A stretch of 64,000 bases of DNA from an uncultured Bacilli bacterium (GTDB taxonomy: Bacteria > Bacillota_I > Bacilli_A > RF39 > UBA660): positions 18,228 through 82,227 of the forward strand of contig CANRPK010000001.1 of assembly GCA_947632455.1 (NCBI GenBank). The letters run 5' to 3'. A model generated the notes under the pieces. That model made no database searches. It was not told where the DNA came from and saw only the letters and a program-made list of their open reading frames with translations. The translations under genes and the position numbers were made by a program. Shown here piece after piece: positions 4,210 through 46,588 of this stretch (positions are counted from its first letter, which is position 1; each line of letters starts with the position of its first letter).

Positions 4210-4725
4210 TTAATTAAGATTTTGTTGCAAAGTTTTAAGTGCTTCTAAAAAAGCTTCTTCTTTTTCATAAGAAATAACTGTTACATTTAAATTTGGTTTA
4301 ATAGTTACCTCTTTATTTACTAAATTATCTAAATCTACTTTCTTAACAGTTAAATCATCAGCTAAATTTTCTTCTTCACTATAATTTAAAGCAAAATCAT
4401 TACGATGTTTTAATAATTCTTCATAACTAATTATTGCTTTTTCTTCTTGTTCTTCTTCATATTCATTTAAATTAATATTACTAGGTTCCGCATTTTCTAA
4501 TGCCTCAGTAATAGCCTTTAAATCATCTACTTCTGTTGTTTGAGTAGGCTTTTCTTCATATATAATATCCAAACTAGAATTATCTTTATTTTCATTTATA
4601 AAATAAATTAGCGTTATAATTAGTAACATTAATACTAAAACCGCTACAAAGAATACAACATCAACAAATGATAATGTCTGTAAAAAACTAATTGCATCAT
4701 TAAGTAGATTCATGTATATCACCAC
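4210..4725 (-). CDS. hypothetical membrane-anchored acidic protein
   Basis: 171 aa; one N-terminal TM helix followed by an Asp/Glu-rich extracytoplasmic region. Confidence 0.45.
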   Translation of the reverse strand: MVIYMNLLNDAISFLQTLSFVDVVFFVAVLVLMLLIITLIYFINENKDNSSLDIIYEEKPTQTTEVDDLKAITEALENAEPSNINLNEYEEEQEEKAIISYEELLKHRNDFALNYSEEENLADDLTVKKVDLDNLVNKEVTIKPNLNVTVISYEKEEAFLEALKTLQQNLN

Positions 4726-4803: not shown

Positions 4804-6045
4804 TTATTGTTCTAAGGTTGGGATATATGGATTTTCTATAGATCCATCACCTGTTACAGTTACTTTGCGGTTAAGACTAATAACTGGTCTTAAATGTCGG
4901 AATAATAAACCTGAAACATTGCTAACTACTCTTCCATCAGTATTAATAGCAAAAGGTTTAAAATCTGTTTCTGATGCTAAAGCTAAAGTAGAAGTCCACC
5001 AAACATTATCTAAATCAGCATTATATAAATAATATTTTTTATTTTCTTCCCCTGTACTAGCTCCAGCATATATTGCTTCATCTGCGCTTAATAATCCTAT
5101 TTTACTACTATAAGAGCTACCAAGGCAATTAAAAGTTGGAATTTTATCTGTTACTATTCGATTATAAGCATTATATATTTTATTAGTAGCTCCATTATTT
5201 AAAGAATCAATACAAAATTTATGAGCAGCAATATAATTATCATAATTTTGTAAATAAATCTCATAATAAACATTTAAAGCTTTAATTATACTGGTATTTT
5301 CAATATCTTCTGAACCTTCAAGTGTATCATTAAAACTAGTAAGCTCACCAGTTGAAGAATTTAATATCATCTTAACTGTACCATCACCATTTATTCTTAC
5401 TATTCGCCATATATTATCTGCAAATTTAACATAATTATTTGCAATATTACCTCTAAAATAATAAGTATTACCTAAATCATCAAAATCCTCAATTAAACCT
5501 TCATTTCCCACGGCTACTTCATCACCAATTTTTGTTAAAGTATCTTTACCTACTGGATTATTTTCTAATAAAGTCATATAAAAATATTCTTTAGAATCAG
5601 TAGTTTTTCTAATTGTTAATTTAAAAGAAGTCATTTTATTATTAAATAATGCAAACGTAAAATTTTGCGTTGCTCCTTTTGGTATTAAAAGATTACCAAC
5701 AAGTACATTAGTGTTTCTATTTAAAGTATTACTAATATCTATATTTCCATCAGTACTAACTAAATTAAAACCTACTTTAGAATCATAATTTTTTAAATTT
5801 TCCATAACAATATCATAATAAACATCATTAGCACTATTATTAGTTATTGAAAAAGTATAAGCTCTATTATCATCAATCATTTTTCCATCAATATAATTAA
5901 TTGATAACTCTTCTACAATTTCCACTTCAGTTCCCACATTAATAACATGATCATAAAAAAGATAACTAACGCCTAAAACTACACACGCTAGAATTAAAAA
6001 AGCAATAAAATATAATATTCTTTTGTATTTTCTTCGCATAAGCAA
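4804..6045 (-). CDS. membrane-anchored secreted protein, distant paralogue of 38331..39842 and 40531..42039
   Basis: 413 aa; N-terminal TM; shares the blocks F/YRGN...NxWRIxRINGDGT and C-terminal RPVIxL...GxGxxxxP[YF] with the two ppdK-adjacent paralogues. The annotated first codon is TTG; an ATG at about 6039 preceded by AAAGGGG is the likelier start. Confidence 0.6.
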   Translation of the reverse strand: MLMRRKYKRILYFIAFLILACVVLGVSYLFYDHVINVGTEVEIVEELSINYIDGKMIDDNRAYTFSITNNSANDVYYDIVMENLKNYDSKVGFNLVSTDGNIDISNTLNRNTNVLVGNLLIPKGATQNFTFALFNNKMTSFKLTIRKTTDSKEYFYMTLLENNPVGKDTLTKIGDEVAVGNEGLIEDFDDLGNTYYFRGNIANNYVKFADNIWRIVRINGDGTVKMILNSSTGELTSFNDTLEGSEDIENTSIIKALNVYYEIYLQNYDNYIAAHKFCIDSLNNGATNKIYNAYNRIVTDKIPTFNCLGSSYSSKIGLLSADEAIYAGASTGEENKKYYLYNADLDNVWWTSTLALASETDFKPFAINTDGRVVSNVSGLLFRHLRPVISLNRKVTVTGDGSIENPYIPTLEQ

Positions 6046-6061
6046 GCCCCTTTATATTTTA

Positions 6062-6090
6062 AGTATATAAATATTTATCTTAATTGTCAA
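6062..6090 (-). promoter_or_regulatory. sigma-A-type promoter (TTGACA-17 nt-TATACT) for the 4804..6045 gene
   Basis: Read on the minus strand: AAATTGACAATTAAGATAAATATTTATATACTT, consensus -35, 17-nt spacer, near-consensus -10; it sits just downstream of the dnaJ terminator. Confidence 0.5.
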
Positions 6091-6116: not shown

Positions 6117-6134
6117 AAGCATCAATCGATGCTT
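6117..6134 (-). terminator. intrinsic terminator of dnaJ
   Basis: Perfect 7-bp inverted repeat AAGCATC-AATC-GATGCTT overlapping the dnaJ stop codon; an A7 run on the plus strand (6112-6118) gives the U-tract on the minus-strand RNA. Confidence 0.6.
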
Positions 6135-32686: not shown

Positions 32687-33868
32687 TTATTTATTATCTA
32701 TTTTTTTATTTTCTACTTCTTTTTTATAATTTGAATATATTTCTCTTACAATATCATCAAATTTATTTTTACTATCATTGCATTTATAATAGTTTAATGC
32801 ATAATGCTTAAATTCACTAAAAGTTTCAGGATTAAATGTATATCCATAAATAGTTATTTTATTATGATATTTGACTCCAGCCATTTGTGCTTGCAAATCA
32901 CACAAAGGTATGAAATCTTCTTTTAAATAATTAAACATTTCCTCGTATGTCATTTTACCATTAAATAAATTAGGATACTTATTTTTTAAATTAAACATTT
33001 TTCTAGCATTACCATATTTAAGTTCTATTAATCCATTTTTGTAAACAGCATCATCTGGAATTAATTCATTAGGAATATTTATTGATACATTAAATGAATT
33101 ATTTTTTCGTGCATATTCAATTAAACTTGGCACTTGTATATGTACTTTATCTAAATATTCAAGTAAAAACAAATAAAATGAATATAAAGTATTTTCTATT
33201 GTACTATTTGATCTAGCTAATAAAGTATCATTATTAGGTATAAGAGTAACATTAGTAACATTATCTTTATCGACATTAAAAATTAATCCTTGATCCAAAA
33301 TACAAATAATTGAAATTTGATTATTACCATCAACTTTTTTGTTCAATTCAAATAATCTTTTTTGTATTTGCTCTAAAGAATAATTTGATGAATAAGCCAA
33401 TACAAAACCTAACGGATAAGCATTGTCATATAAATTATAAATTCCATTTTTATTAGGCAGTTTACTTAATTGCCTAACACTTTCAACATTTTTTACACTT
33501 TGTTCAAGTGTAGAATAATCAAGTATTGATTTTATCTCTACTGTAGCATAAATACTTTCTATTGGTAAAATGGAGTTTGAATCCGTTTTAAAAAAACTTG
33601 GACAATTAAAAGCATCATATATTATAAAATCTTGTTGTTTACTTTGATGTTGATTGTTATCTATAACAATTCCACTAGAAATCGAATACTTTTCTGGAAG
33701 TAATTTTTTTAAATAGTCTTTAAGTAAATCTTCACGTGCACTTCCTTTAACCCCATTATGCTTAATTTGTTTAGTAATACCATCAAAATCAATTTTTAAT
33801 TTTTTTGCAATATCTTCAATATTATAAATAAACATATAACATCTCCAAAAAAAGCAACTAATATACAT
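32687..33868 (-). CDS. large hypothetical protein with an N-terminal PD-(D/E)xK-like nuclease signature
   Basis: 393-aa ORF; the likelier start is the internal ATG at about 33835 with a GGAGATG ribosome-binding site. N-terminal region GVKGSAREDLL...DFIIYD...VEIKS fits a D-x(n)-E-x-K restriction-endonuclease-like core; about 250 aa of uncharacterised C-terminus follow. Confidence 0.55.
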   Translation of the reverse strand: MYISCFFWRCYMFIYNIEDIAKKLKIDFDGITKQIKHNGVKGSAREDLLKDYLKKLLPEKYSISSGIVIDNNQHQSKQQDFIIYDAFNCPSFFKTDSNSILPIESIYATVEIKSILDYSTLEQSVKNVESVRQLSKLPNKNGIYNLYDNAYPLGFVLAYSSNYSLEQIQKRLFELNKKVDGNNQISIICILDQGLIFNVDKDNVTNVTLIPNNDTLLARSNSTIENTLYSFYLFLLEYLDKVHIQVPSLIEYARKNNSFNVSINIPNELIPDDAVYKNGLIELKYGNARKMFNLKNKYPNLFNGKMTYEEMFNYLKEDFIPLCDLQAQMAGVKYHNKITIYGYTFNPETFSEFKHYALNYYKCNDSKNKFDDIVREIYSNYKKEVENKKIDNK

Positions 33869-33895
33869 ATATTATAACATTAACGATTATTTTTT

Positions 33896-34752
33896 TCATT
33901 TTATTTTGTTATATTGAATAATTGCCTCAATAATATATTGTTCAATATATCTTTTATCCCTTTTTAATAATTCTTTTGGTAATACCGATTCTATTTTTTC
34001 TTTATTAAATGAAATTTTGTCATTTTGATTTCCTTTTTTCTCTAGCAATATATTTTCTACCATATCAAAAGTTAATTTTTTCTTTTCACTTATTTTTCTA
34101 ATTTTCAAAGCTTGAGCATAACTTGGTGTAACTTCTTCATAAGTAATTGTAAAATATACTAATTCTTGAGCAGCTTTTGCTAGATAAGAAAGTTCAACAG
34201 CAGTAGTTATTCCTAAAGTTAAAATACTTCTCTTATCATAAATTACTGTATTATCAACAATTTTTAGTATCTCTGGTATCAAATAAGTCAGTCTTATATA
34301 TCTCCGTACTTGTTCTCGGGATTCTCCACTAACTTTAGATATTAATTCAACTGATGTTAACTTCTGCACACCCTGTGTAGAAGTGTTTTTTTTCCTTGAT
34401 GTTTAATTGCCTCTAATTTCATTTTATAGACAAATGCTTTTTCTGATGGTAAAATTTTATTTCGATAAATATTAGAATCTACCATGTAAATAGTAGCTTC
34501 ATCATCATTTAATTCTTCAATATAACAATCAGCCTCATGAATTCCATTTAATTCTAATGCTAATTTTCTTCTATGGCCTGATATCATTTCAAATCTTCCG
34601 TTTTCTTTTCTTCTTACCACTAATGGATTTAACAATCCATTTTCTTTAATGCTATTTCTTAATTCATTTAATGATTCATCTTTTTCTACTCTAAAAGGAT
34701 GATTTTTAAATGAATCTATCATTCTTAAATCTATTTTTATTACTTTTTTCAT
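33896..34752 (-). pseudogene. ParB/Srx N-terminal-domain plus HTH protein, split by a -1 frameshift in an A8 tract
   Basis: ORF 34357..34752 carries the ParB box (GLLNPLVVRR...EMISGHRR). ORF 33896..34369 carries the HTH (SVELISKVSGESREQVRRYI). The two frames overlap across GGAAAAAAAAC at about 34385-34394, and one additional A would fuse them into a single 288-aa protein. Confidence 0.6.
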
Positions 34753-35226
34753 CTATTCTCCTTCTTTCAATTCATAGTTAAGTTTCCATTCAAGATATTT
34801 TTCATAAGACAATTCTCTTGTATCTCGAAGTTTCCTCATTTTTTCCCATTCTTCCATAAATTTTAAAATCAAATTATCTCTATCATTACGAAAGTATTCA
34901 GAAATTGCAAAATCAATATTCATTTTAGGAAATAACTCTTCTAACCATAATAGGAAATAAATTATATCTTCAGATTTGTCAAAGTTATATTTTCGAATAC
35001 AATTAACATTAACATTTAAAATGTTAGCTATTTCTAAAAGTCTATCTTCTTTGGGAACTCTTTCTCCACTTTCATATCTTGCCATTCCTCTTCTCTTATT
35101 TTCCTTTTTCATTCCTAACTTTTCCGCAACCTCTTCTTGTGTTAAACCTCTAAACTGCCTTATAAATGCAATTCTTGCTCCTTGTGTTAAATCATCTAAT
35201 TCATGTCTAAAATATATTCTTCTCAT
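34753..35226 (-). CDS. XRE-family HTH transcriptional regulator
   Basis: 157 aa; HTH_3 motif LTQEEVAEKLGM...YESGERVP; strong GAGAGGAG ribosome-binding site; first gene of the island's co-oriented gene string. Confidence 0.8.
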   Translation of the reverse strand: MRRIYFRHELDDLTQGARIAFIRQFRGLTQEEVAEKLGMKKENKRRGMARYESGERVPKEDRLLEIANILNVNVNCIRKYNFDKSEDIIYFLLWLEELFPKMNIDFAISEYFRNDRDNLILKFMEEWEKMRKLRDTRELSYEKYLEWKLNYELKEGE

Positions 35227-35490: not shown

Positions 35491-35562
35491 GTAATTATTT
35501 GAATAAATGTAGAACGCCTTTACGGACTATTTGTTCTCCTTTTCACGTATAGCAGCTTGTGC
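35491..35562. repeat. right direct repeat: the authentic ppdK 3' end (attR-like)
   Basis: Partner of 31429..31500; it overlaps the last 14 codons and the stop codon of ppdK. Confidence 0.8.
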
Positions 35563-38163
35563 TGCAGCAAGTCTAGCGATTGGAACTCTAAATGGACTAC
35601 ATGATACATAATCAAGGCCTATATTATGGCAAAATTCTACGCTTGATGGATCTCCACCATGTTCACCACAAATACCAATATGTAAATTATCATTTACATT
35701 TCTACCTAATTTAATAGCCATATCCATAAGTTTTCCTACCCCATTTTGATCTAATTTTGCAAATGGATCATTTTCTAAAATCTTAGTATCATAGTATGCT
35801 CTTAAGAATTTACCAGCATCATCTCTTGAAAAACCATAAGTCATTTGTGTTAAATCGTTTGTTCCAAAGCAGAAGAAATCAGCTTCTTTTGCAATTTCAT
35901 CCGCAGTAACACAAGCACGTGGTATCTCAATCATTGTTCCAACTTTATAATCTAATTTAACTCCAGCCTTTTTAATTTCTTCATCAGCAGTTTCAACAAC
36001 AATATTTTTAACATATTTTAATTCTTTAACTTCTGAAACTAATGGAATCATAATTTCTGGAACGATATTCCAATCTGCATGTTTCTTTTGGACATTTATA
36101 GCCGCTCTAATAACCGCTTTAGTTTGCATTTTAGCTATTTCTGGATAAGTTACTGCTAAACGACAACCTCTATGTCCCATCATTGGATTAACTTCATGTA
36201 AGCTAGCAATTAAATTTTTGATATCTTCCACACTCTTATTTTGTGCCTTAGCTAATTTAGCTATTTCTTCTTCAGTTGTTGGTACAAATTCATGTAAAGG
36301 TGGATCCAAATATCTTATTGTAACAGCATAGCCTTCTAATGCTTCATATAACTCTTCAAAGTCATTTTGTTGATAAGGAAGTATTTTATCTAAAGCTTTT
36401 TCTCTTTCTTCAACTGTATCAGCACAAATCATTTCTCTAAAAGCTGCAATTCTATCCTCTTCAAAGAACATATGCTCAGTTCTACAAAGCCCAATACCTT
36501 CAGCTCCTAATTCTCTAGCTTTTTTAGCATCTTTAGGTGTATCAGCATTAGTTTTAACTTTAAGTTTTCTAAACTTATCAGCCCAATTCATTACTCTTTC
36601 AAATTCTCCAGCAATAGTAGCATCTACAGTTTTAATAATTCCATCATAAATATTACCAGTTGTACCATCTATTGAAATATAATCTCCTTCATGGAATGTC
36701 TTACCACCTAAAGTAAATTGCTTATTTTCTTCATCCATTGTGATATCACCACATCCAGATACACAGCAAGTACCCATTCCTCGAGCAACAACTGCCGCAT
36801 GACTAGTCATACCACCACGAACAGTTAAAATACCTTGACTAGCCTTCATACCTGTTATATCTTCTGGAGAAGTTTCAAGTCTTACTAAAATAACTTTTTC
36901 TCCTTTAGCATGCCAAGCCTCAGCATCATCTGCTGTAAATACAACTTTACCACAAGCAGCTCCCGGAGAAGCACCTAAACCTTTACCCATTGGAGTAGCG
37001 GCTTTAAGTTCATTAGTATCAAATTGTGGATGAAGTAAAGTATCTAGATTTCTAGGGTCAATCATCTCTACAGCTTCTTCTTCAGTTCTCATACCTTCAT
37101 CAACTAAATCACAAGCAATCTTTAAAGCAGCTTTAGCAGTACGTTTACCATTTCTAGTTTGTAACATATAAAGTTTACCATGTTCCACTGTAAATTCCAT
37201 ATCTTGCATATCTCTATAATGAGTTTCTAATATATTACATACTTCTTTAAATTGTTTAAAAGCTTCTGGAAATTTAACTTCCATTTCACTAATTTTCATT
37301 GGAGTTCTAACACCAGCCACAACATCTTCACCTTGAGCATTTGTTAAAAATTCTCCAAATAAACCTTTTTCTCCTGTAGCAGGATCTCTAGTAAAGGCAA
37401 CACCTGTTCCACAATCATCGCCCATATTACCAAAAGCCATAGATTGAACATTTACTGCAGTTCCCCAAGAATAAGGAATATCATTATCTCTACGATAAAC
37501 ATTAGCTCTAGGATTATCCCAGCTTCTAAATACAGCTTTAATCGCTCCCATTAATTGTTCTTTTGGATCAGTTGGAAAATCTGTACCTATTTTAGATTTG
37601 TATTCTTCTTTAAATTCTCTTGCTAATTCTTTTAAATCTTCAGCACTAAGTTCAATATCTTGAGTAACTCCCTTAGCTTCTTTCATTTTATCAATAAGTT
37701 GTTCAAAATATTTTTTACCAACTTCCATAACTACATCAGAATACATTTGAATAAATCTTCTATAGCAATCCCAAGCCCATCTAGGATTATTAGATTTTTC
37801 AGCTAAAACATTTACTACTTCTTCATTTAAGCCTAAATTCAAAATAGTATCCATCATACCTGGCATACTAGCACGAGCACCACTTCTTACAGAAACTAAT
37901 AAAGGATTTTCTTTATCACCAAATTTTTTACCAGTTTCTTTTTCAAGCTTTAAGATATATTCATTAATCTGAGCTTGAATTTCTTCATTAATTTCTCTAC
38001 CATCTTCATAGTATTTTGTACAAGCTTCAGTAGTAATAGTAAAACCTTGAGGTACTGGTAACCCAATACTAGTCATCTCTGCTAAATTGGCACCTTTACC
38101 ACCTAAAAGGTCTCGCATATCTTTGTTTCCTTCTTTGAAGGAATAAACATATTTTTTCTCCAT
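35527..38163 (-). CDS. ppdK: pyruvate, phosphate dikinase
   Basis: 878 aa; N-terminal ATP-grasp region GGKGANLAEM; central phospho-His domain; C-terminal PEP-utilising TIM-barrel region; strong AGGAGGG ribosome-binding site; extended -10 TGCTATAAT upstream. Confidence 0.95.
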   Translation of the reverse strand: MEKKYVYSFKEGNKDMRDLLGGKGANLAEMTSIGLPVPQGFTITTEACTKYYEDGREINEEIQAQINEYILKLEKETGKKFGDKENPLLVSVRSGARASMPGMMDTILNLGLNEEVVNVLAEKSNNPRWAWDCYRRFIQMYSDVVMEVGKKYFEQLIDKMKEAKGVTQDIELSAEDLKELAREFKEEYKSKIGTDFPTDPKEQLMGAIKAVFRSWDNPRANVYRRDNDIPYSWGTAVNVQSMAFGNMGDDCGTGVAFTRDPATGEKGLFGEFLTNAQGEDVVAGVRTPMKISEMEVKFPEAFKQFKEVCNILETHYRDMQDMEFTVEHGKLYMLQTRNGKRTAKAALKIACDLVDEGMRTEEEAVEMIDPRNLDTLLHPQFDTNELKAATPMGKGLGASPGAACGKVVFTADDAEAWHAKGEKVILVRLETSPEDITGMKASQGILTVRGGMTSHAAVVARGMGTCCVSGCGDITMDEENKQFTLGGKTFHEGDYISIDGTTGNIYDGIIKTVDATIAGEFERVMNWADKFRKLKVKTNADTPKDAKKARELGAEGIGLCRTEHMFFEEDRIAAFREMICADTVEEREKALDKILPYQQNDFEELYEALEGYAVTIRYLDPPLHEFVPTTEEEIAKLAKAQNKSVEDIKNLIASLHEVNPMMGHRGCRLAVTYPEIAKMQTKAVIRAAINVQKKHADWNIVPEIMIPLVSEVKELKYVKNIVVETADEEIKKAGVKLDYKVGTMIEIPRACVTADEIAKEADFFCFGTNDLTQMTYGFSRDDAGKFLRAYYDTKILENDPFAKLDQNGVGKLMDMAIKLGRNVNDNLHIGICGEHGGDPSSVEFCHNIGLDYVSCSPFRVPIARLAAAQAAIREKENK

Positions 38164-38257
38164 AATTCCCTCCTAATAATGTTTCTAAAATATTATAGCA
38201 AAAGTCAACTAAACACACAATTAAACAAGTTAAATTTTACAAATAATATACAAAAAA

Positions 38258-38327
38258 ATAGGGATAAACCCTATTTGATAAATATATCTTGCCTATACTT
38301 AGAATAAGAAGAAGACGCATAGGCAAG
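38258..38327 (-). terminator. pair of hairpins after surface-protein gene 1
   Basis: ATAGGG-ATAAA-CCCTAT with a U7 run on the minus-strand RNA (38258-38274), plus the palindrome CTTGCCTATAC...GTATAGGCAAG (38288-38327) with a T-run on the plus side. The equivalent pair recurs after the second copy. Confidence 0.55.
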
Positions 38328-38330
38328 TTT

Positions 38331-39842
38331 TTATATGTTTGTTTTTACTACGAATGGACTACCAGATTTACCATTTCCTCCACTAAATTCTATATTAGAT
38401 TTAAGATTGATTACAGGTCTAACACCATGATTGCCATACACTGCGAAGCCGTTGAGGTCTCCACCATTAAGTACCCGAAACACATGAACCAGCTTGCCAG
38501 TGACATTATAGCGGGATGGAGACATTGTCCAATAATATTGGTTAGTATATAACCAATAATCAGTTGATGCTGTTCCTCCAAATCCTCCGACCATCATTAC
38601 TTCATCACTTGTTATTAAAGCAGCTGGTACATCTAAAGATTGGTTGCCAACATTTGAACCAATAGTTGTAAATAAGTCTCTTTTTAATGAATTTAGATCT
38701 ATTTCATCAAAACTTTTAAATCCTTCTACGTCTGATGGACTTGTTTCAGACATTTTTACTCCACACTTTAATGTTGAATACTGATTTTTTCTCCATCTAT
38801 CAGTTGTCATTAATCTTGATATTGGTGCATATCCTGTTGCAGTTTCTCCGGTACCATCGCCATTATAACCATTAAAAACATTTTTTACGACAGTTCTGTC
38901 ATTACACCATCCGGTGCTTCCCTCTAGATAATCTGTATAACCACTCATTGATCCTATTCCGTTATACCATGTTTGTACTGCTTCGGCGATATTACTTGGT
39001 GTAGTATTTGAGTGAGCCTCTTCATATTTTGGATTAGGATATTCTTCTGATTTTGCTGTTCCATAATAATAGCCAATGTAGGTGTTGTCATCATATGGTG
39101 CTGATTTATATGCTGATGTTGTGGCATTTGTTGTCTCTCCTTCAGTGGTTTCACAATTTGGTTCTGCACATTGGAATATTAATCTTAATGTGCCATCTCC
39201 ATTTATTCTGATTATTCTCCATGTATGATTTGCAAATGTTACCCAGTTATTTACATCATCATTATTTCCTCTAAATACATAGCTTGTTCCATAGTTATCT
39301 GGACTAGTATATAATTTCTCTTTTCCTTCGGGATTTTCTGTACTCTCATCGTATGGACCAGTTATGGGGTTTGGCATGGCGTCTATAGTATACTTGCTCC
39401 CTTTTGATGTTTCTAACTTACCTAACATTTCTTTTACTAAACTATCAAAATATATATAACATTTTGTTCCTTTTTCTGTTAAGTGAGATATATTTATTTC
39501 GCTATTTACATATTCTATTTCTACTTCTTCTATTGGTTTGCCATTTACTTCACAATAACTATCTTCACTTAGTTTATATCCCATTGTAGGTATCTTACTT
39601 ATATTGATATATTCCTTTTCTTCAGATGTACTATCATCTTTTTCTTGATACATCGCGATTATGTTTAAATCTGCTTTATTATAACTTATATTTCCACTTG
39701 CTAGTTCTATACTTTCTGTATTTCTATATCTTGCTAAACTCGTTATATAGTTTATTAATATTACTAATCCTATAGTTAGTAATATCCCTATTATTACTCC
39801 CTTTACTTTGGAGGTATTATCCTCCAATTTTTCTAATTTCAT
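38331..39842 (-). CDS. membrane-anchored secreted protein, paralogue 1 (unknown family)
   Basis: 503 aa; N-terminal TM; the roughly 40 residues after the TM helix are identical to paralogue 2 apart from one N/S difference, and the C-terminus is conserved; Cys-, Thr- and Gly-rich variable middle; no LPXTG motif and no cell-wall-binding repeats. Confidence 0.7.
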   Translation of the reverse strand: MKLEKLEDNTSKVKGVIIGILLTIGLVILINYITSLARYRNTESIELASGNISYNKADLNIIAMYQEKDDSTSEEKEYINISKIPTMGYKLSEDSYCEVNGKPIEEVEIEYVNSEINISHLTEKGTKCYIYFDSLVKEMLGKLETSKGSKYTIDAMPNPITGPYDESTENPEGKEKLYTSPDNYGTSYVFRGNNDDVNNWVTFANHTWRIIRINGDGTLRLIFQCAEPNCETTEGETTNATTSAYKSAPYDDNTYIGYYYGTAKSEEYPNPKYEEAHSNTTPSNIAEAVQTWYNGIGSMSGYTDYLEGSTGWCNDRTVVKNVFNGYNGDGTGETATGYAPISRLMTTDRWRKNQYSTLKCGVKMSETSPSDVEGFKSFDEIDLNSLKRDLFTTIGSNVGNQSLDVPAALITSDEVMMVGGFGGTASTDYWLYTNQYYWTMSPSRYNVTGKLVHVFRVLNGGDLNGFAVYGNHGVRPVINLKSNIEFSGGNGKSGSPFVVKTNI

Positions 39843-39898
39843 TGCTCTTATTCCCTTTCCATTATCAATATTATTAGAAATTCCTAATTTATATTTAA

Positions 39899-39927
39899 AT
39901 TATAATATCTGTTATTATTAAAGTCAA
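39899..39927 (-). promoter_or_regulatory. consensus sigma-A promoter (TTGACT-17 nt-TATAAT) for 38331..39842, inside a roughly 75-bp intergenic block shared with the second module
   Basis: Minus strand reads TTGACTTTAATAATAACAGATATTATAAT. The -10 overlaps a near-palindromic AATTATAAT, and an imperfect palindrome TTAGAAATTCCTAA lies just downstream. Confidence 0.55.
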
Positions 39928-39999
39928 GAAAAATTGCATTATTTGTCCCACTTTTAATTATTTTTTTTTATAACATGAGACAATATTCCTGGTGATAAT

Positions 40000-40452
40000 A
40001 TGTACACGGCTAAATTAAAAGAATTAAGAGAACGCATAGGTTTAAGCAAAACTGAAATTGCAAAAATAATAGGTATTGATCGCAGCCAATATGGCCATTA
40101 TGAAAATGATTATATAACTATACCTATAAAACATTTAGTAGCATTAGCCAATTATTACAATGTTTCCCTAGATTATATTTTTAATTTAAATCAAAACAAG
40201 CAATATCCGAAAATTAAAAAAGTAGTGGATCCCAAAATTAGTGGAAAACGTTTAAAGGAACTTAGAAAAGAATTTAAAATATCTCAAACCAATTTAGCTA
40301 ATTATTTAAATACAGCTTTTTCTACTATTTCATCTTACGAAAGAGGTATAAACACTATTGCAACAAATTATGTTTATGCCATATGTAAAAAATATAATAT
40401 TTCTGCTGATTACTTATTAGACAGAATTGATGATCCCAAATATTTAAAATAA
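40000..40452 (+). CDS. tandem-HTH (2x HTH_3/XRE) transcriptional regulator
   Basis: 150 aa; two helix-turn-helix units (LSKTEIAKIIGIDRSQYGHYE and ISQTNLANYLNTAFSTISSYE); divergent from surface-protein gene 1. Confidence 0.8.
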   Translation: MYTAKLKELRERIGLSKTEIAKIIGIDRSQYGHYENDYITIPIKHLVALANYYNVSLDYIFNLNQNKQYPKIKKVVDPKISGKRLKELRKEFKISQTNLANYLNTAFSTISSYERGINTIATNYVYAICKKYNISADYLLDRIDDPKYLK

Positions 40453-40461
40453 CCATAAAAA

Positions 40462-40526
40462 AGAATACCCACAAAGGTATTCTAATAAATATGCCTATAC
40501 TTGGAATAAGAAAGCAGTATAGGCAT
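40462..40526. terminator. convergent terminator pair between HTH gene 1 (+) and surface gene 2 (-)
   Basis: AGAATACC-CACAAA-GGTATTCT with a U-run on the minus-strand RNA (40462-40483), and ATGCCTATAC...GTATAGGCAT followed by a T5 run on the plus strand (40491-40526). Confidence 0.6.
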
Positions 40527-40530
40527 ATTT

Positions 40531-42039
40531 TTATATATTTGTTTTTACGATAAATGGATTGTCAGATTTACCAGTACCTCCACTAAATTCGATATCGGCA
40601 TTAAGATTAATTACTGGACGAACACCAAAAGTGCTATATACACCCCAAGTACGGAGGTTGCCATCGTAATGCACGTGGAAAGCGGCAGCTTCATTAACAT
40701 TGGTATCATACCAAAAAGGAGACATTGTCCAATAGTTTTGGCCTGTGTATAACCAATAGTTAGTACTTACTGTTCCTCCAAAGCCTCCGGCCATAACTAC
40801 TTCATCACTTGTAATTAATGCTGATGGTACAGAAAGTCTTTCATTTCCTCTATTTGAGCTTTCAGTAGTAAATAAATCTCTTTTTAATGCTGTAGCATCT
40901 ATTTCATCAAAACTACTAAATCCGACATTATCTGATGGACTTATTTCTGGCATTACTACTCCACACTTTAACGTTGGATATTGCTTTGTTCTATAGTTTC
41001 CTGTTGGAATTAATCGTGAAGCTGGGGCATATCCTGTTGCAGTTTGTGCTGTTCCATCACCTTCATAACCACCCCAAACTTTCTTTACGATAGTTCGATC
41101 ATTACACCATCCAGTATCTCCATTTAAATATTTGGTATAATTTGTCATTGCTCCTGTTCCACTATACCAACTGTCAACAGCTTTTGCTATATCACTAGGA
41201 GTGGAATTTGAATGTGTTTCTTCATATGTTGGATCTTCTTCGTCTTTATCCGCTTTGGATGTTCCATAATAATAGCCGACATAAGTGTTATCATCAACTG
41301 GTCTAGATTTATATGCATTATTACCTATTTGAGTTTGAATGCCTGTTGTATCTGTACATTCTGGTGTTGCACATTGGAATATCATTCTTAATGTGCCATC
41401 TCCATTTATTCTGATTATCCTCCATGTATGACCTGCAAAAGTTACCCAGTTATGCACATCCTCATTATTTCCCCTAAAGACATAACTGGTTCCATAATTA
41501 TCTTCGGTTGTGTATAATTTTTCTTTTCCTTCGGGATTTTCTTTTTGTGCATCATATGGTCCTGTTATAGGACTTGGCATGGCATCTATGGTATATTTGC
41601 TTTGTTTTGTTGTTTCTAACTTTGCTAACATATCATCTGCCTTATAATCCATATCAAAATATACATAACATTTCGTTCCTCTTTTATTTATTTTACTTAC
41701 ACTTATATATCCTTCTTCATATGTTATCTGTGCTTCTTCTACTTTTTGTCCTTCTACTTCACAATAGCTTTTATTACTCAATGTATATTTTTCAGTTGGT
41801 ACATCATCTATTTGTTTATATCCATTTGTACCATAACTGCTTTCTTGATACATCGCTATTATACTTAAATCTGCTTTATTATAACTTATATTACCACTTG
41901 CAAGTTCTATACTTTCTGTATTCCTATATCTTGCTAAACTGGTTATATAGTTTATTACTATAAATAATATTGCACATACTATAAAGCCATATATAAATAA
42001 TTTTTTATCTTTTTCTTTACTTAACCCTTTTAATTTCAT
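40531..42039 (-). CDS. membrane-anchored secreted protein, paralogue 2
   Basis: 502 aa; same architecture as paralogue 1. The nucleotide sequence is near-identical at both ends of the gene and diverged in the middle. Confidence 0.7.
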   Translation of the reverse strand: MKLKGLSKEKDKKLFIYGFIVCAILFIVINYITSLARYRNTESIELASGNISYNKADLSIIAMYQESSYGTNGYKQIDDVPTEKYTLSNKSYCEVEGQKVEEAQITYEEGYISVSKINKRGTKCYVYFDMDYKADDMLAKLETTKQSKYTIDAMPSPITGPYDAQKENPEGKEKLYTTEDNYGTSYVFRGNNEDVHNWVTFAGHTWRIIRINGDGTLRMIFQCATPECTDTTGIQTQIGNNAYKSRPVDDNTYVGYYYGTSKADKDEEDPTYEETHSNSTPSDIAKAVDSWYSGTGAMTNYTKYLNGDTGWCNDRTIVKKVWGGYEGDGTAQTATGYAPASRLIPTGNYRTKQYPTLKCGVVMPEISPSDNVGFSSFDEIDATALKRDLFTTESSNRGNERLSVPSALITSDEVVMAGGFGGTVSTNYWLYTGQNYWTMSPFWYDTNVNEAAAFHVHYDGNLRTWGVYSTFGVRPVINLNADIEFSGGTGKSDNPFIVKTNI

Positions 42040-42086
42040 ATCTATCCTTTCCTCAATATTATTAGAAATTCCTAACTTATATTTAA

Positions 42087-42115
42087 ATTATAATATCTGC
42101 TATCATTAAAGTCAA
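42087..42115 (-). promoter_or_regulatory. consensus sigma-A promoter (TTGACT-17 nt-TATAAT) for 40531..42039; duplicate of 39899..39927
   Basis: Same conserved intergenic block, including the TTAGAAATTCCTAA palindrome and the ATGAGACAATA motif ahead of the HTH gene. Confidence 0.55.
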
Positions 42116-42176
42116 GAAAAATATTTCTATTTAGCACGTTTTGTTTTTTATAAAATAAATAAATGAGACAATAATC

Positions 42177-42641
42177 TTGGTGATTTCTATGAATTATGAA
42201 AATAATTTAAAAGCTCTAAGAACAGAATTTAACATCTCTCAAAAACAACTTAGTGAAATGTTAGAAATTGATAGAACAACCTACAATCATTATGAAAATA
42301 ATTACATAACTATCCCTATAAAACATTTAATTAAACTTAGTGAATTTTTTCACACTTCAATAGACTATATTTTTGGTTTTACTAATTTACATAATAAATT
42401 ACCCAATATAACCCCTTCTCTTGCTTCTACTCGTCTTAAAGAATTTCGCAAAAATAATAAATTAACTCAAGCCAAACTAGCTGAAATACTAAACACCAAT
42501 CAATCAGTTATTGCCAATTATGAAAGAGGAAGAACACTAATTGCTACTCCATTTTTATATACGATTTGCAAAAAATATGATATATCCGCGGATTACTTAT
42601 TAGGCAGAACTGATGAACCAAAAGTCATAAAAAAACAATGA
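42177..42641 (+). CDS. tandem-HTH (2x HTH_3/XRE) transcriptional regulator, paralogue 2
   Basis: 154 aa; same two-HTH organisation as 40000..40452. Confidence 0.8.
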   Translation: MVISMNYENNLKALRTEFNISQKQLSEMLEIDRTTYNHYENNYITIPIKHLIKLSEFFHTSIDYIFGFTNLHNKLPNITPSLASTRLKEFRKNNKLTQAKLAEILNTNQSVIANYERGRTLIATPFLYTICKKYDISADYLLGRTDEPKVIKKQ

Positions 42642-42652
42642 TCATCTATTTA

Positions 42653-43345: not shown

Positions 43346-43392
43346 TTAAATTATACCAAATAAAAACCCAAAGGAAAAGTCTATTTGTCGAT

Positions 43393-43414
43393 AAAAGCCC
43401 GCGCACTCGCAGGT
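43393..43414 (-). terminator. GC-rich hairpin downstream of the HerA-like gene
   Basis: CCUGCG-AGUG-CGCGGG followed by CUUUUAU on the minus-strand RNA; it is conspicuously GC-rich for this genome. Confidence 0.35.
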
Positions 43415-43611
43415 GGTAAGAAACATACATACTTCTGGATTCTGGCTAATCAATGACCAGCATTCAACTCCATATGTAATTATTCCCCCAATATTATCTC
43501 ATAGTCGGTTTTATGTAAAATAAACTATATCCTCTAGGTAATATTATTATATCATATAACATCAAAATTATTCAATATAGATGACAATTATTTACACTTT
43601 TTCTTTTATAT

Positions 43612-45540
43612 TTAAGAAACAACTCCTGTAGTATTAGGATTAACTCTTGAAGTAACTCTACTTTGAGCTTGCATTTGTCCCGTAATATTATCAGTTGGAA
43701 CACCTTCTGTAACATAATTATTCGCTACTGGTTGAGCATTTATTGGTTTTTCTGCAGGCTTTTGTCCCCAACAACCTGAAACATTACAGTTAGTACTATA
43801 AGGCATAGGATCTGGCATTTCTAGTTTACAAATCATAGGTATTTTAAAAGCTGACCCAAACGCTACACAATTTCCTGGTTGAAGAACTTTTTGTTTTTCA
43901 ATAACATCCGCGCTAATATTTGGAAGCATTTCTTCAATATATTTAATATCTTTAGGGTGTGTCATTTTAAATATTAAGAAATTAGAACATTGCGCAATAA
44001 CTGTATCACTTATTTCAACTGGTCTTTGGCTTATAATATCTAACATAACTCCATATTTACGACCCTCTTTAGCAATTCTATCAAATATATTATAACCTAA
44101 TAAGAAAGTATCTGTATCTTGTTGAATATACCTATGGGCCTCTTCCAAAAATAAATGAAATGGAATACTTGCTCTTTGTTTTAAACCTTTAGCATAATCA
44201 AATAATAATTTAGATATAATTTTAACAATAACTTTAGCCATTGCATCATCAATATCTTCCAAATTTATATTAACAATTTGAGCTTTTGAATTATTTTTTC
44301 GACATAACTCTTCAATAAATTCTTCTACACTTGTATATTTTGAACCATCAAAATAATTATTTACTGGTCCACTTATAATAGTATTAAGTCTTACTTGTAA
44401 AATCATTGCTTCATTATACATTACTTGATTACCTTGAAAACCTTCACTAATTAAAGTAAACTCTAATGCATTAGCTAATTCTTTTAAAGTATAAAAGCTT
44501 TTTTCTGGAATTGCAATTTCTTCAATAGATTCATCGATATGTTTTAAAATATATTCTGTAATTAATACAGATTCTCCAAAATTACCATTAGAATCTATTT
44601 CAAAACATTCACTAAAACTTCTAGTATAACCAACTCCTGGAATTATAGAATCAAAATTAAATTCTTCAGTATGACATACTTCAATTACTTTAAATATTTC
44701 ATTCTTTTTATAACTAGTAGTCATATTACTAAATAAAATAGCAATTAAAGCTTTAGCAATTAAATGATTTTTATATTTAGTTACTTCTTCCCCTTCACTA
44801 GCAAATAATTTAGCATATTTTATACTACGTTCCAAAATAGGTAGTTGGGAATGGCTAGAAGCTTGTAAAAGTAAAGCTACATCATCTAAAGTAAGTAAAT
44901 TAACTGGTATTTTAAGTAAAAAATCTGATGCATCTTGGGGATGGGTTGTAACAAACTTATAACTATAATTTGGATTAATTTTATCTAAAGAGCCAAAAGC
45001 ATTTTTATATTCACCATAAGCATCAAAGAAAAACATATTGGCATTATAAGTAGTCATTTTAGGATTACTAAAAATATTTTGAATAATCCTAGAAACACCA
45101 CAAGATTTACCTGAACCAGAATTTCCAAAAATAGCTAAATGATTAGAAAATAAACTATTTATATCTGGACATATTTGAAATCCTTTATATGTTGCACTTG
45201 TTCCTAAAACAAAGTTTTTATCACTAAGTCTACCTACAATCTCTAATAATTCTTCGCCATTTATTACTCTAATTTTACTAGATAGTAAAGGCTTTCTAAT
45301 AACACCATTTACATATTTAGTACCCATAAATTCACCTAAAAAGCGAATAATAATCTCCTCGCTATTTAATTCTACAACTTCCCCTAAAATTCTTTGATCT
45401 TTATCTTCAAAAATAACATGAATATTCATTAAATCCGCGGTAATAGTATCTTTACTAATATTTTCAACATGGGCTATATTATCACTTATATATAAAATTT
45501 TTCCAAATATCATCTTATCGCACCCTTTTACTATAACCAA
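43612..45540 (-). CDS. HerA/FtsK-like (DUF87-type) P-loop ATPase
   Basis: 642-aa ORF; the likelier start is the ATG at about 45513 with an AAAGGGTG ribosome-binding site. N-terminal beta-barrel-like region, Walker A GNSGSGKS, Walker B with the HerA-type LFLEEAHRY, and a low-complexity C-terminal tail. Confidence 0.7.
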   Translation of the reverse strand: MVIVKGCDKMIFGKILYISDNIAHVENISKDTITADLMNIHVIFEDKDQRILGEVVELNSEEIIIRFLGEFMGTKYVNGVIRKPLLSSKIRVINGEELLEIVGRLSDKNFVLGTSATYKGFQICPDINSLFSNHLAIFGNSGSGKSCGVSRIIQNIFSNPKMTTYNANMFFFDAYGEYKNAFGSLDKINPNYSYKFVTTHPQDASDFLLKIPVNLLTLDDVALLLQASSHSQLPILERSIKYAKLFASEGEEVTKYKNHLIAKALIAILFSNMTTSYKKNEIFKVIEVCHTEEFNFDSIIPGVGYTRSFSECFEIDSNGNFGESVLITEYILKHIDESIEEIAIPEKSFYTLKELANALEFTLISEGFQGNQVMYNEAMILQVRLNTIISGPVNNYFDGSKYTSVEEFIEELCRKNNSKAQIVNINLEDIDDAMAKVIVKIISKLLFDYAKGLKQRASIPFHLFLEEAHRYIQQDTDTFLLGYNIFDRIAKEGRKYGVMLDIISQRPVEISDTVIAQCSNFLIFKMTHPKDIKYIEEMLPNISADVIEKQKVLQPGNCVAFGSAFKIPMICKLEMPDPMPYSTNCNVSGCWGQKPAEKPINAQPVANNYVTEGVPTDNITGQMQAQSRVTSRVNPNTTGVVS

Positions 45541-45566
45541 TTATAACATATTTAATAATCAAAAAA

Positions 45567-45582
45567 AAGAGGTTTTCCTCTT
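45567..45582 (-). terminator. intrinsic terminator after 45584..46588
   Basis: AAGAGG-AAAA-CCUCUU followed by a U8 run on the minus-strand RNA, immediately after the stop codon. Confidence 0.6.
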
Positions 45583-45583
45583 T

Positions 45584-46588
45584 TTATGTTTCTCGCCAAA
45601 TTTCATACCAATTTTTTAAATTAGTAAGACCATCTCCCGCGATATCCTTTATTAATTCCCAAGATAAATGGAAATTTTGTTTTAATTCTGTAAAACCATC
45701 TTTTGCCTGATTGCATAAAGTTGGTTCATTAGTACAAACTTTAGTAGTAATAGTTAAATAAGCTTCTACAATTTTACTTTTGACATTTGTATAAACTTTG
45801 GTAACCCCATTACTTATCGTTTCTTTATATCCTGGAAAATATTGTTCAATTTTTGTATCAAAATATAAAGCCATTCCTAATACTTTAAGTTTAACTGTAT
45901 TTGTTAAATCACTAAACTTATAACCCTTTATAGTTCCATTATAAAATAAAAAATCAACTACACTTACAAAACCTTTTTTTATAGTATTACTATTTTTATT
46001 TTCATCAATACTTACTTTATAATCATTAAAATAAGCTATTACTTCTGTATCTGCATTACCACTATTACCTGTTTCAGTATTATTATCTTCACTATTATTT
46101 AGATCATTATTAGGATTTTTAACCTCTTCATTTTTACTTACTTCATTATTAGGCTTTTCATTAACAATTTTATCCTCTACATTATTTTCTTTATTTTCAT
46201 CATCTATATCCGGAGTTTCATTTTCTGTATCATCCGTATTTATATCTTCATCTATTTTTTCATCACTATTATTTTCATTAACCTTAATTAATTCTTCATC
46301 ACTAATTATAATAGTTTTAGGACTAGCATCATCATTTAAATTACTTTTATCATAACTAAATTTAACTTCATCCCCAACTTGATATATACCTTTAATATTT
46401 TGAATTAAATAATCTTCATCATCTGCTTCAATCATCACATAATTTGGAGAAGCAATTATAACTACTCCCGTAATTTCTTGTAAGTCATCTTTATTATTAT
46501 CTTTAATTAAATAATAAATAACTACTAAAGCACCAATAAAAAGAATAAATAAAACAACTAAAAGAATATTCTTTGTTTTATCCCGCAT
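45584..46588 (-). CDS. membrane-anchored protein with an Asn/Asp/Glu-rich disordered linker
   Basis: 334 aa; N-terminal TM; small beta-rich domain; about 90 aa of low-complexity acidic/Asn-rich linker; C-terminal domain of about 150 aa; GAAAGGGGA ribosome-binding site. Confidence 0.6.
   Translation of the reverse strand: MRDKTKNILLVVLFILFIGALVVIYYLIKDNNKDDLQEITGVVIIASPNYVMIEADDEDYLIQNIKGIYQVGDEVKFSYDKSNLNDDASPKTIIISDEELIKVNENNSDEKIDEDINTDDTENETPDIDDENKENNVEDKIVNEKPNNEVSKNEEVKNPNNDLNNSEDNNTETGNSGNADTEVIAYFNDYKVSIDENKNSNTIKKGFVSVVDFLFYNGTIKGYKFSDLTNTVKLKVLGMALYFDTKIEQYFPGYKETISNGVTKVYTNVKSKIVEAYLTITTKVCTNEPTLCNQAKDGFTELKQNFHLSWELIKDIAGDGLTNLKNWYEIWRET

Follow-up and report, generated by a model that had tools for sequence, protein, structure and literature searches.

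Paired modules of a putative variable surface protein and a tandem helix-turn-helix regulator in an uncultured gut Bacilli bacterium

What is a pair of neighbouring two-gene units, each setting a putative surface protein against a divergently transcribed regulator, doing among housekeeping genes, and how did two such units come to lie side by side? The question is raised by a locus in a 64,000-nucleotide (nt) stretch of contig CANRPK010000001.1 from an uncultured Bacilli bacterium (hereafter the window; all coordinates are positions within it). Here, two units of about 2.2 kb each consist of a gene for a putative surface protein (S) and a divergent gene for a regulator (R) with two XRE helix-turn-helix (HTH) domains, in the order ThiF-R2-S2-R1-S1-PPDK. 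The initial annotation, made by eye, described a tandem duplication with conserved ends and a diversified middle. Our analysis leads to a different answer: the locus probably holds two members of an old and expanded family of two-gene modules, in which a variable, lectin-like S protein is paired with its own regulator and promoter.

Layout, family and age of the two units

The features that make up the two units are as follows.

38331-39842, minus strand: S1, open reading frame (ORF) of 503 amino acids (aa)
40531-42039, minus strand: S2, ORF of 502 aa with the same architecture as S1
40000-40452, plus strand: R1, 150 aa with two XRE-type HTH domains, divergent from S1
42177-42641, plus strand: R2, ORF opening at TTG 42177, likely true start ATG 42189, 150 aa with tandem XRE-type HTH domains
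38289-38328, followed by 38256-38276, minus strand: S1 terminator, two hairpins 3' of the S1 stop codon and a T-run, found by terminator scan
40462-40483, T-run on the minus strand: S2 terminator hairpin, between R1 and S2, back-to-back with the R1 terminator
40487-40530, plus strand: R1 terminator hairpin with 15-nt perfect arms and a T-rich tail

We prefer ATG 42189 as the R2 start because a conserved GGTGA ribosome-binding site precedes it and because it gives a protein of 150 aa, like R1. Much of the layout first proposed for the locus stands. The ORFs and their HTH_3 matches confirm a putative surface protein and a divergent 150-aa tandem-HTH regulator in each unit; terminator pairs are present in both, and the S1 terminator repeat recurs in the second unit when the DNA repeats are compared. 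The promoter block is kept (39865-39996 and 42053-42184 are 79% identical, with a near-identical core), and the roughly 40 residues after the transmembrane helix, said to be identical but for one, indeed differ over residues 31-67 only at N60S. A DNA repeat with a period of about 2200 nt spans the entire unit. Full-length BLASTP comparison gives 64% identity between S1 and S2 (E = 0), and R1 and R2 are 49% identical. The contrast of conserved ends with a diversified middle did not survive, since identity between S1 and S2 is patchy along the protein: 37% at aa 1-30, 97% at 31-60, about 45% at 61-135, about 85% at 150-225, about 58% at 226-300 and about 40% at 436-465. The best-conserved block is thus found mid-protein and the least-conserved block near the C-terminus.

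The two units belong to a very large family. One S search returned 1,481 matches, and individual contigs carried as many as six copies. When one genome was scanned for each species, more than 566 genomic loci emerged, nearly all of them in metagenome-assembled genomes (MAGs) of uncultured gut Bacilli, 'Tenericutes' or 'Mycoplasma sp. CAG'. Some MAGs hold at least 10-15 S copies (10-15 of the best 80 loci came from single genomes). A full HMMER pass gave 10,886 clusters at 50% identity, 3,271 of them with E <= 1e-30. A divergent XRE gene lies within 600 nt of 47 of the 75 S genes for which upstream sequence is available, and most of these encode proteins of about 150 aa with two HTH domains. 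The picture of a single two-unit locus therefore gives way to one pair among thousands of modules, and a third R-S module is found outside the window, past recD2 and only about 2.8 kb from the left edge (L090 4408-6503), where a 147-aa double-HTH regulator diverges from a 500-aa S protein (P0004/P0123) that is 76% identical to S1. At least three modules, together with a more distant paralogue beside dnaJ (S3, described below), are therefore present within about 45 kb.

As a separate observation, S-type C-terminal domains occur in tandem in the giant proteins P0244 (4905 aa), P0245 (3528 aa) and P0249 (2534 aa), with up to 28 matched stretches; the domain therefore also serves as a repeat unit in very large proteins.

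The adjacency of the two units, their shared layout and 2200-nt period, and the fact that S1 and S2 are closer to each other than either is to the S protein of any other species (at most 47% identity) would all fit a single module that was recently duplicated in tandem on the spot, with diversifying selection then driving the copies apart in place. We nevertheless regard this as improbable. Synonymous divergence (dS) is high (S1/S2, 0.69; R1/R2, 1.24), and R1 shares 65% identity with a regulator from another species, well above its identity to R2. S1 also resembles P0004 on the same contig (76%) and copies from other contigs (78%) more than it resembles S2, and the third module lies on the same contig at a distance of about 36 kb. 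Finally, a second assembly of the same species (ENA ERZ27249647), with an S3 that is 100% identical, keeps the ThiF-R2-S2-R1-S1-PPDK layout with very different S alleles. Because of the high dS and because R1 is closer to a foreign regulator than to R2, the two units are, judged from their sequences, distinct old family members standing side by side and not the product of a recent duplication.

Fold of S and proposed control by R

To place the S protein, which the initial annotation had left without a family, we combined structure prediction with profile searches. The AlphaFold2 (AF2) model of S1 (pLDDT 86, pTM 0.83) begins with a helix at aa 10-37 (transmembrane or signal anchor) and a conserved, low-confidence juxtamembrane linker (38-58), followed by a beta-sandwich (59-134), a further helix and a large mixed domain (about 150-503). 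Its top solved match is 9qa6, the Thomasclavelia ramosa IgA peptidase (Foldseek, E = 0.013, probability 0.77, 370 columns), of which residues 31-322 are DUF6273 by its authors' annotation (PMC12402451). Phage models labelled 'DUF6273 domain-containing' are also among the top structural matches (E = 1.6e-5 to 1e-2), and canonical C-type lectin domains match more weakly. The match is moderate, as TM-scores are low (0.16-0.26). At the sequence level, PF19789 (DUF6273) scores 16.0 bits with S1 and 14.2 bits with S2, below the gathering score of 23.5, and the alignments are confined to the C-terminal part of the profile; S3 gave no match to this profile. Sub-threshold matches at E <= 0.1 were obtained for 11 of 24 family members (best 4e-4), and a few more distant S relatives bear a precomputed PF19789 match. 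Based on the structural matches to DUF6273 proteins and these sub-threshold C-terminal profile matches, we read S as a divergent, enlarged branch of DUF6273, a family for which a C-type-lectin-like fold has been reported.

DUF6273 proteins are the best structural match to S, their profile is fitted by its C-terminal motifs, and their C-terminal end is where the most variable stretch of S lies. S differs from them in more than its sub-threshold score. Its domain of about 350 aa is about twice the length of the 172-position Pfam profile, with conserved Cys pairs and large insertions. A membrane helix and a beta-sandwich are attached to this domain in place of peptidase or phage tail domains, and S is accompanied by its own regulator. 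The conserved Cys pairs and the N-terminal helix, together with the lectin-like fold, support the view of S as an extracytoplasmic protein, with its bulk probably outside the cell. An S/T-x-A motif is conserved at residues 35-37, before Y39.

The conserved linker YRNTESIELASGxISY is reminiscent of TasA/camelysin-type signals. A SipW/TasA-type signal or donor strand was rejected, as searches with hidden Markov models (HMMs) gave no support: TIGR04088 (SipW-cognate signal peptides) matched none of seven N-terminal fragments even at E <= 10, nor the full proteins. The corresponding residues of S3 are modelled as the two opening strands of its beta-sandwich, so a structural role for the linker is the simpler reading.

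Could S instead be an extracytoplasmic enzyme, or a sensor that relays its state to R? S carries an invariant DE pair and an invariant Arg, its juxtamembrane segment is extremely conserved (ratio of nonsynonymous to synonymous divergence, dN/dS or omega, of 0.03), and some proteins with a C-type-lectin fold are enzymes, the formylglycine-generating enzyme being an example. We give this idea little credence. The S proteins are not a housekeeping enzyme family; searches of Pfam, NCBIfam and PDB with their sequences found no enzyme family and no PDB relative, and the invariant residues look to us like structural motifs of the DUF1566/DUF6273 type. R consists of two HTH domains only, without room for a sensing or membrane domain, and a hypervariable tip such as that of S is typical of binding sites and not of active sites.

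The regulators themselves are readily classified. PF01381 (HTH_3) matches twice in each, with 100.5 bits for R1 (E = 5e-29) and 99.1 bits for R2 (E about 1e-28). Within R, it is the second HTH that is strongly conserved across the family, and the first varies. Across species R is 50-65% identical, compared with 33-47% for S. The control regions between the divergent genes are:

39843-39999: S1-R1 bidirectional control region, with the S1 promoter TTGACT-17-TATAAT at 39927..39899 on the minus strand
42040-42188: S2-R2 control region, with the S2 promoter TTGACT-17-TATAAT at 42115..42087 on the minus strand

The S1-R1 region contains an invariant block, TATAATTTAAATATAAATTAGGAATTTCTAATAATATTGA, which spans the -10 element and the first 25 or so transcribed bases and encloses the 14-bp palindrome TTAGGAATTTCTAA at 39874-39887; in the S2-R2 region the palindrome stands at 42062-42075. 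The exact palindrome is found just twice in the window, upstream of S1 and upstream of S2, and we predict it to be the operator. On the R side of the S1-R1 region lie the conserved ATGAGACAAT and a GGTGA ribosome-binding site. The control region is kept even across species whose S proteins share as little as the 33-47% given above, in the form ATTTTTCTTGACTTT...TATAATTTAA-TATAAG-TAG-AA, often followed by the palindrome TTAGAAATTTCTAA. In 24 loci the module promoter pattern occurs exactly once, directly upstream of S, and the promoter block accompanies 31 of 36 S genes with a double-HTH R as against 0 of 27 without R (p = 5e-13). Of the local transcriptional control first suggested for these genes, the pairing with an adjoining regulator is thus borne out, and repression by R is the part that we infer, because a near-consensus promoter needs no activator.

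An Rfam-type scan of the control regions and untranslated regions of the window's modules found no known RNA element, and no inverted repeats that could form a phase-variation switch bracket the promoter. Slippage at an A9 tract was considered as a source of phase variation and rejected, as the tract has identical length in three assemblies. All S copies seen have their own promoter or start codon.

Two minor features of the control regions deserve mention. The motif ATGAGA(A/C)AAT is conserved across species 10-15 nt upstream of the R GGTGA (39970-39999 and 42160-42188 in the window, and most R-carrying loci); candidate roles are an extended -10-like element, half of an operator site or a very short upstream ORF, which would read MRQYSW* before R1 and MRQ* before R2. 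In one module subfamily (L015, L017, L022, L024, L025, L048, L063, L071), the 5' leader is longer and conserved, in the stretch some 20-110 nt downstream of the S promoter -10. There, AAGCTAGGAAAC, close to where transcription starts, is able to base-pair with …AAATGAAGCCTAGCATCATG, which directly precedes the ribosome-binding site. An ATCATA-N4-TATGAT hairpin is enclosed between them, and the leader may be a structured RNA.

In their HTH_3 domains, divergent arrangement, compact shared control region and palindrome beside the -10 element, the modules resemble XRE/Cro-C1 repressor systems (phage CI/Cro, the C proteins of restriction-modification systems, CapH, RstR), and the best library matches of R are of this type. 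They differ in that R has two HTH domains in one 150-aa chain, the second conserved and the first variable, and in that its partner is a putative surface protein instead of a phage, restriction or defence gene. Among PADLOC defence-protein models there was no match for S1 or S3 and only generic HTH matches for R.

This likeness raises the question of whether the modules are remnants of prophages or mobile elements, that is, a phage receptor-binding protein with its CI/Cro-type repressor and no role for the cell. DUF6273 is frequent in tail proteins of gut phages, R matches phage repressor families (phrog_8, RstR), and S, for which the phage protein library gave nothing specific, weakly matches phrog_9958. 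Yet the modules sit among housekeeping genes (PPDK, a ThiF-family protein, 6S RNA), with no genes for phage structural proteins, integrase or lysis nearby, and S has an N-terminal membrane helix where a tail-attachment domain would be expected. Moreover, the locus is syntenic between strains and species, and its intact frames, strong promoter and purifying selection over most of the S protein (omega 0.03-0.4) argue for function. A phage remnant is thus quite unlikely, and we return to the modules as cellular genes for variable surface proteins.

Variation within S

Variation in S peaks in one short segment near the C-terminus, the hypervariable patch:

38427-38522, minus strand: S1 patch, aa 441-472, SPSRYNVTGKLVHVFRVLNGGDLNGFAVYGNH, between YWTMSP and GVRPVINL
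40627-40722, minus strand: S2 patch, SPFWYDTNVNEAAAFHVHYDGNLRTWGVYSTF, 28% identical to the S1 patch

Among 51 close homologues, aa 441-472 has the highest column entropy (2.2-2.6 bits), and the patch sequence is unique in 49 of them. The S1 patch aligns to positions 127-172 of the PF19789 profile, in its C-terminal part. In published work, the variable regions of diversity-generating retroelements (DGRs) in phage DUF6273 proteins map to the equivalent site.

Outside the patch, the close homologues are assembled from segments that vary independently. The 8 types of N-terminal leader and the 6 types of beta-sandwich combine freely with one another and with other segments, with an adjusted Rand index of about 0 between segment types, and the best-matching relative of S switches from window to window along the protein. 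Compared at the sequence level, the close S homologues are thereby shown to be patchwork mosaics derived from recombination among family members.

The strain comparison gave a particularly sharp contrast. Between the two assemblies, DNA identity is 97-100% in the flanks, both R genes and both control regions, compared with 59-89% in the S genes; at the protein level, R1 is 98.7% and R2 100% identical, as opposed to 76% for S1 and 73% for S2, so that the replacement seen between strains is confined to S. The whole 3' two-thirds of the S genes differ, synonymous sites included, and the indels between strains (21, 14 and 3 gap columns) lie in this part. Since dS within S alleles reaches 0.5-0.8 in a 99%-identical background, in-place mutation cannot explain the differences, which indicate S alleles that were replaced by recombination or that represent long-maintained allelic lineages. 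The initial annotation had expected a mosaic in place of uniform divergence, and the free assortment of segments, the changing best partner and the strain comparison all agree with it.

Two observations on alleles stand beside this comparison. The second-strain S2 allele P0050 (L088/L089 10001-11485) ends in an out-of-frame tail, …RPVINLNVMLNLVKVMVNLIIHLS, and the tail is the same in samples taken independently from two sources, which points to a real frameshift at the cost of the domain's last strands. An R-S module occupies the same position upstream of PPDK in the rabbit-gut MAG Lapin-015__bin56 (L005 5393-10265, compared with window 35527-40452); the PPDK there is 92% identical to that of the window, the S just 42%, which is the contrast seen between strains at greater distance.

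The initial annotation had also invoked gene conversion and diversifying selection. The juxtamembrane block at aa 31-62 combines an omega of 0.03 with a dS of 0.42, which argues for family-wide purifying selection and against recent gene conversion as what keeps such blocks conserved. With dN/dS computed along the copies, omega of about 1-1.2 was seen solely at aa 1-30 and 63-135 of S1/S2 and not in the between-strain comparison.

That a DGR elsewhere in the genome writes the patch, as in phage DUF6273 proteins, is very unlikely: although the patch sits at the position of the DGR variable region in DUF6273 and the fold is probably one that DGRs use, no template-like copy of it occurs in the 64-kb window, DGRs do not create indels such as those between the strains, the entire 3' two-thirds of S and not one patch differs, synonymous sites included, and each of the many dispersed copies would require a matching template.

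With DGR variable proteins (Mtd of Bordetella phage BPP-1, TvpA of Treponema denticola, archaeal and Thermus proteins), the S proteins probably share the general C-type lectin scaffold, and with it the idea of a stable frame with a massively variable binding surface near the C-terminus. The differences are the absence of a template repeat or reverse transcriptase at the S modules in the window, and a 'germline' form of diversity, with many paralogues and alleles, recombination with indels and synonymous divergence.

Recombining surface-protein families include vlp, vsa and mgpB-MgPar of Mycoplasma, pilE/pilS and opa of Neisseria and vlsE of Borrelia. Like S, these are generally known as multi-copy, mosaic families with hypervariable exposed regions in host-associated bacteria, and with conserved ends that can guide recombination. 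In contrast to vlp/vsa, pilE/pilS, opa and vlsE, no silent promoterless cassettes were identified among S, nor does S have an invertible promoter or a length-variable repeat tract; instead, each S copy has a strong promoter and a dedicated regulator, and the fold is another one.

Taken together, these data fit the following working model. S would be held at, or released from, the cell surface by its N-terminal hydrophobic helix, and its extracytoplasmic part would consist of the beta-sandwich followed by the enlarged DUF6273 domain with a hypervariable tip predicted to bind ligands. The S promoter, being near-consensus for sigma-70, is expected to be intrinsically strong. R would bind the invariant block overlapping the -10 element and the transcription start and thereby repress S, and probably R itself, so that each S gene has one switch in the form of its own R. 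The S proteins may serve as variable binding proteins, either adhesins or receptors, with glycans or proteins of host, dietary or microbial origin as ligands. Their diversity arises as family members exchange segments and as whole alleles are replaced through homologous recombination, and not from a retroelement or from local duplication, while R, the control region and the flanking genes stay nearly invariant.

Several results weigh against this model. No regulator accompanies 28 of the 75 family S genes. The N-terminus of S could be an uncleaved anchor or a cleaved signal peptide, and R could be an activator or have other targets. In the patch, dN/dS is raised (0.36-0.98, in S1/S2 and between strains) and not above 1, so positive selection on point mutations is not demonstrated there and the diversifying selection that had been proposed did not emerge. 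Long identical tracts between non-allelic copies were sought in six genes, and the longest was 77 nt, most being shorter than 50; donors and recent conversion events were therefore not caught.

A further, rather doubtful possibility is that all R-S modules of one genome, which number in the dozens, form a single network around a shared, near-invariant operator, with one or a few S proteins displayed at once. The conserved second HTH would then read the common operator and the variable first HTH would provide member-specific control. If this were true, the network would amount to purely transcriptional adhesin or antigen variation drawing on a germline repertoire. It would parallel, in the cells of a gut lineage without cultured members, the phage receptor-binding proteins that retroelements diversify.

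A literature search found no paper describing the R-S module family. DUF6273 and C-type-lectin variable proteins are already known, as are recombining surface-protein families; what sets this family apart is the dedicated tandem-HTH regulator, the control region conserved across species, and a diversity that owes nothing to a retroelement. With such modules, the cell would seem to have a repertoire of variable binding proteins built in. The host bacteria, relatives of 'Mycoplasma sp. CAG:776' and of rabbit- and human-gut MAGs, are common gut Bacilli, and the large, rapidly exchanging S family may be the chief variable surface through which they meet their surroundings. The DUF6273 scaffold, so far known as a target of phage retroelements, is also seen here to diversify along another route, by paralogue expansion and recombination. 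In practical terms, the promoter-operator block offers a handle for finding all modules in metagenomes.

S3 and the neighbouring genes

A third gene had been put forward as a distant paralogue, set beside dnaJ with a consensus promoter of its own. Both points hold, with the relationship confined to the C-terminal domain (S3 against S: hhalign profile-profile probability 99.95%, E = 1.5e-38). The features concerned are:

4804-6045, minus strand: S3, likely start ATG 6039 (411 aa; the ORF has 413), with transmembrane helix, beta-sandwich and compact DUF6273-like domain
6062-6090, minus strand: S3 promoter TTGACA-17-TATACT, downstream of the dnaJ terminator (6117-6134)
4210-4725, minus strand: acidic single-pass membrane protein of 167-171 aa, between S3 and mtaB

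The AF2 model of S3 (pLDDT 80.5) follows the plan of S, with helix, beta-sandwich and compact DUF6273-like domain; a fold search with it returned only weak jelly-roll or carbohydrate-binding-module-like matches, for the N-terminal beta-sandwich. S3 has no partner regulator, none of the control block or promoter of the R modules and none of the large insertions. Its orthologues are uniform (404-416 aa, about 50% identity) and always stand in the order hrcA-grpE-dnaK-pepF-dnaJ-S3-acidic membrane protein-mtaB. S3 thus looks like a stable, slowly evolving, single-copy core member of the family, without a regulator. The acidic membrane protein, for which library searches found no family match, is 68% identical and in the same position in L020 and present in L082-L087. 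As it always directly follows S3 and precedes mtaB in related genomes, the two are suggested to form a functional pair.

Around the two R-S units, a 6S (SsrS) RNA gene (43361-43543, minus strand; 48.6 bits, gathering score 46.4) lies between the ThiF-family gene and the gene for a HerA-like ATPase. The latter, a DUF87 protein of 642 aa, is followed by a 334-aa protein without a Pfam match (43612-46588, minus strand), and the pair is kept in the second strain. Just downstream of PPDK, small genes at 32687-35226 (minus strand) encode single-HTH, ParB N-terminal-domain, unknown 157-aa and DUF6602 proteins. This run looks like an accessory or defence-type islet, and in the second strain it is swapped for other small genes (L088 16805-17700).

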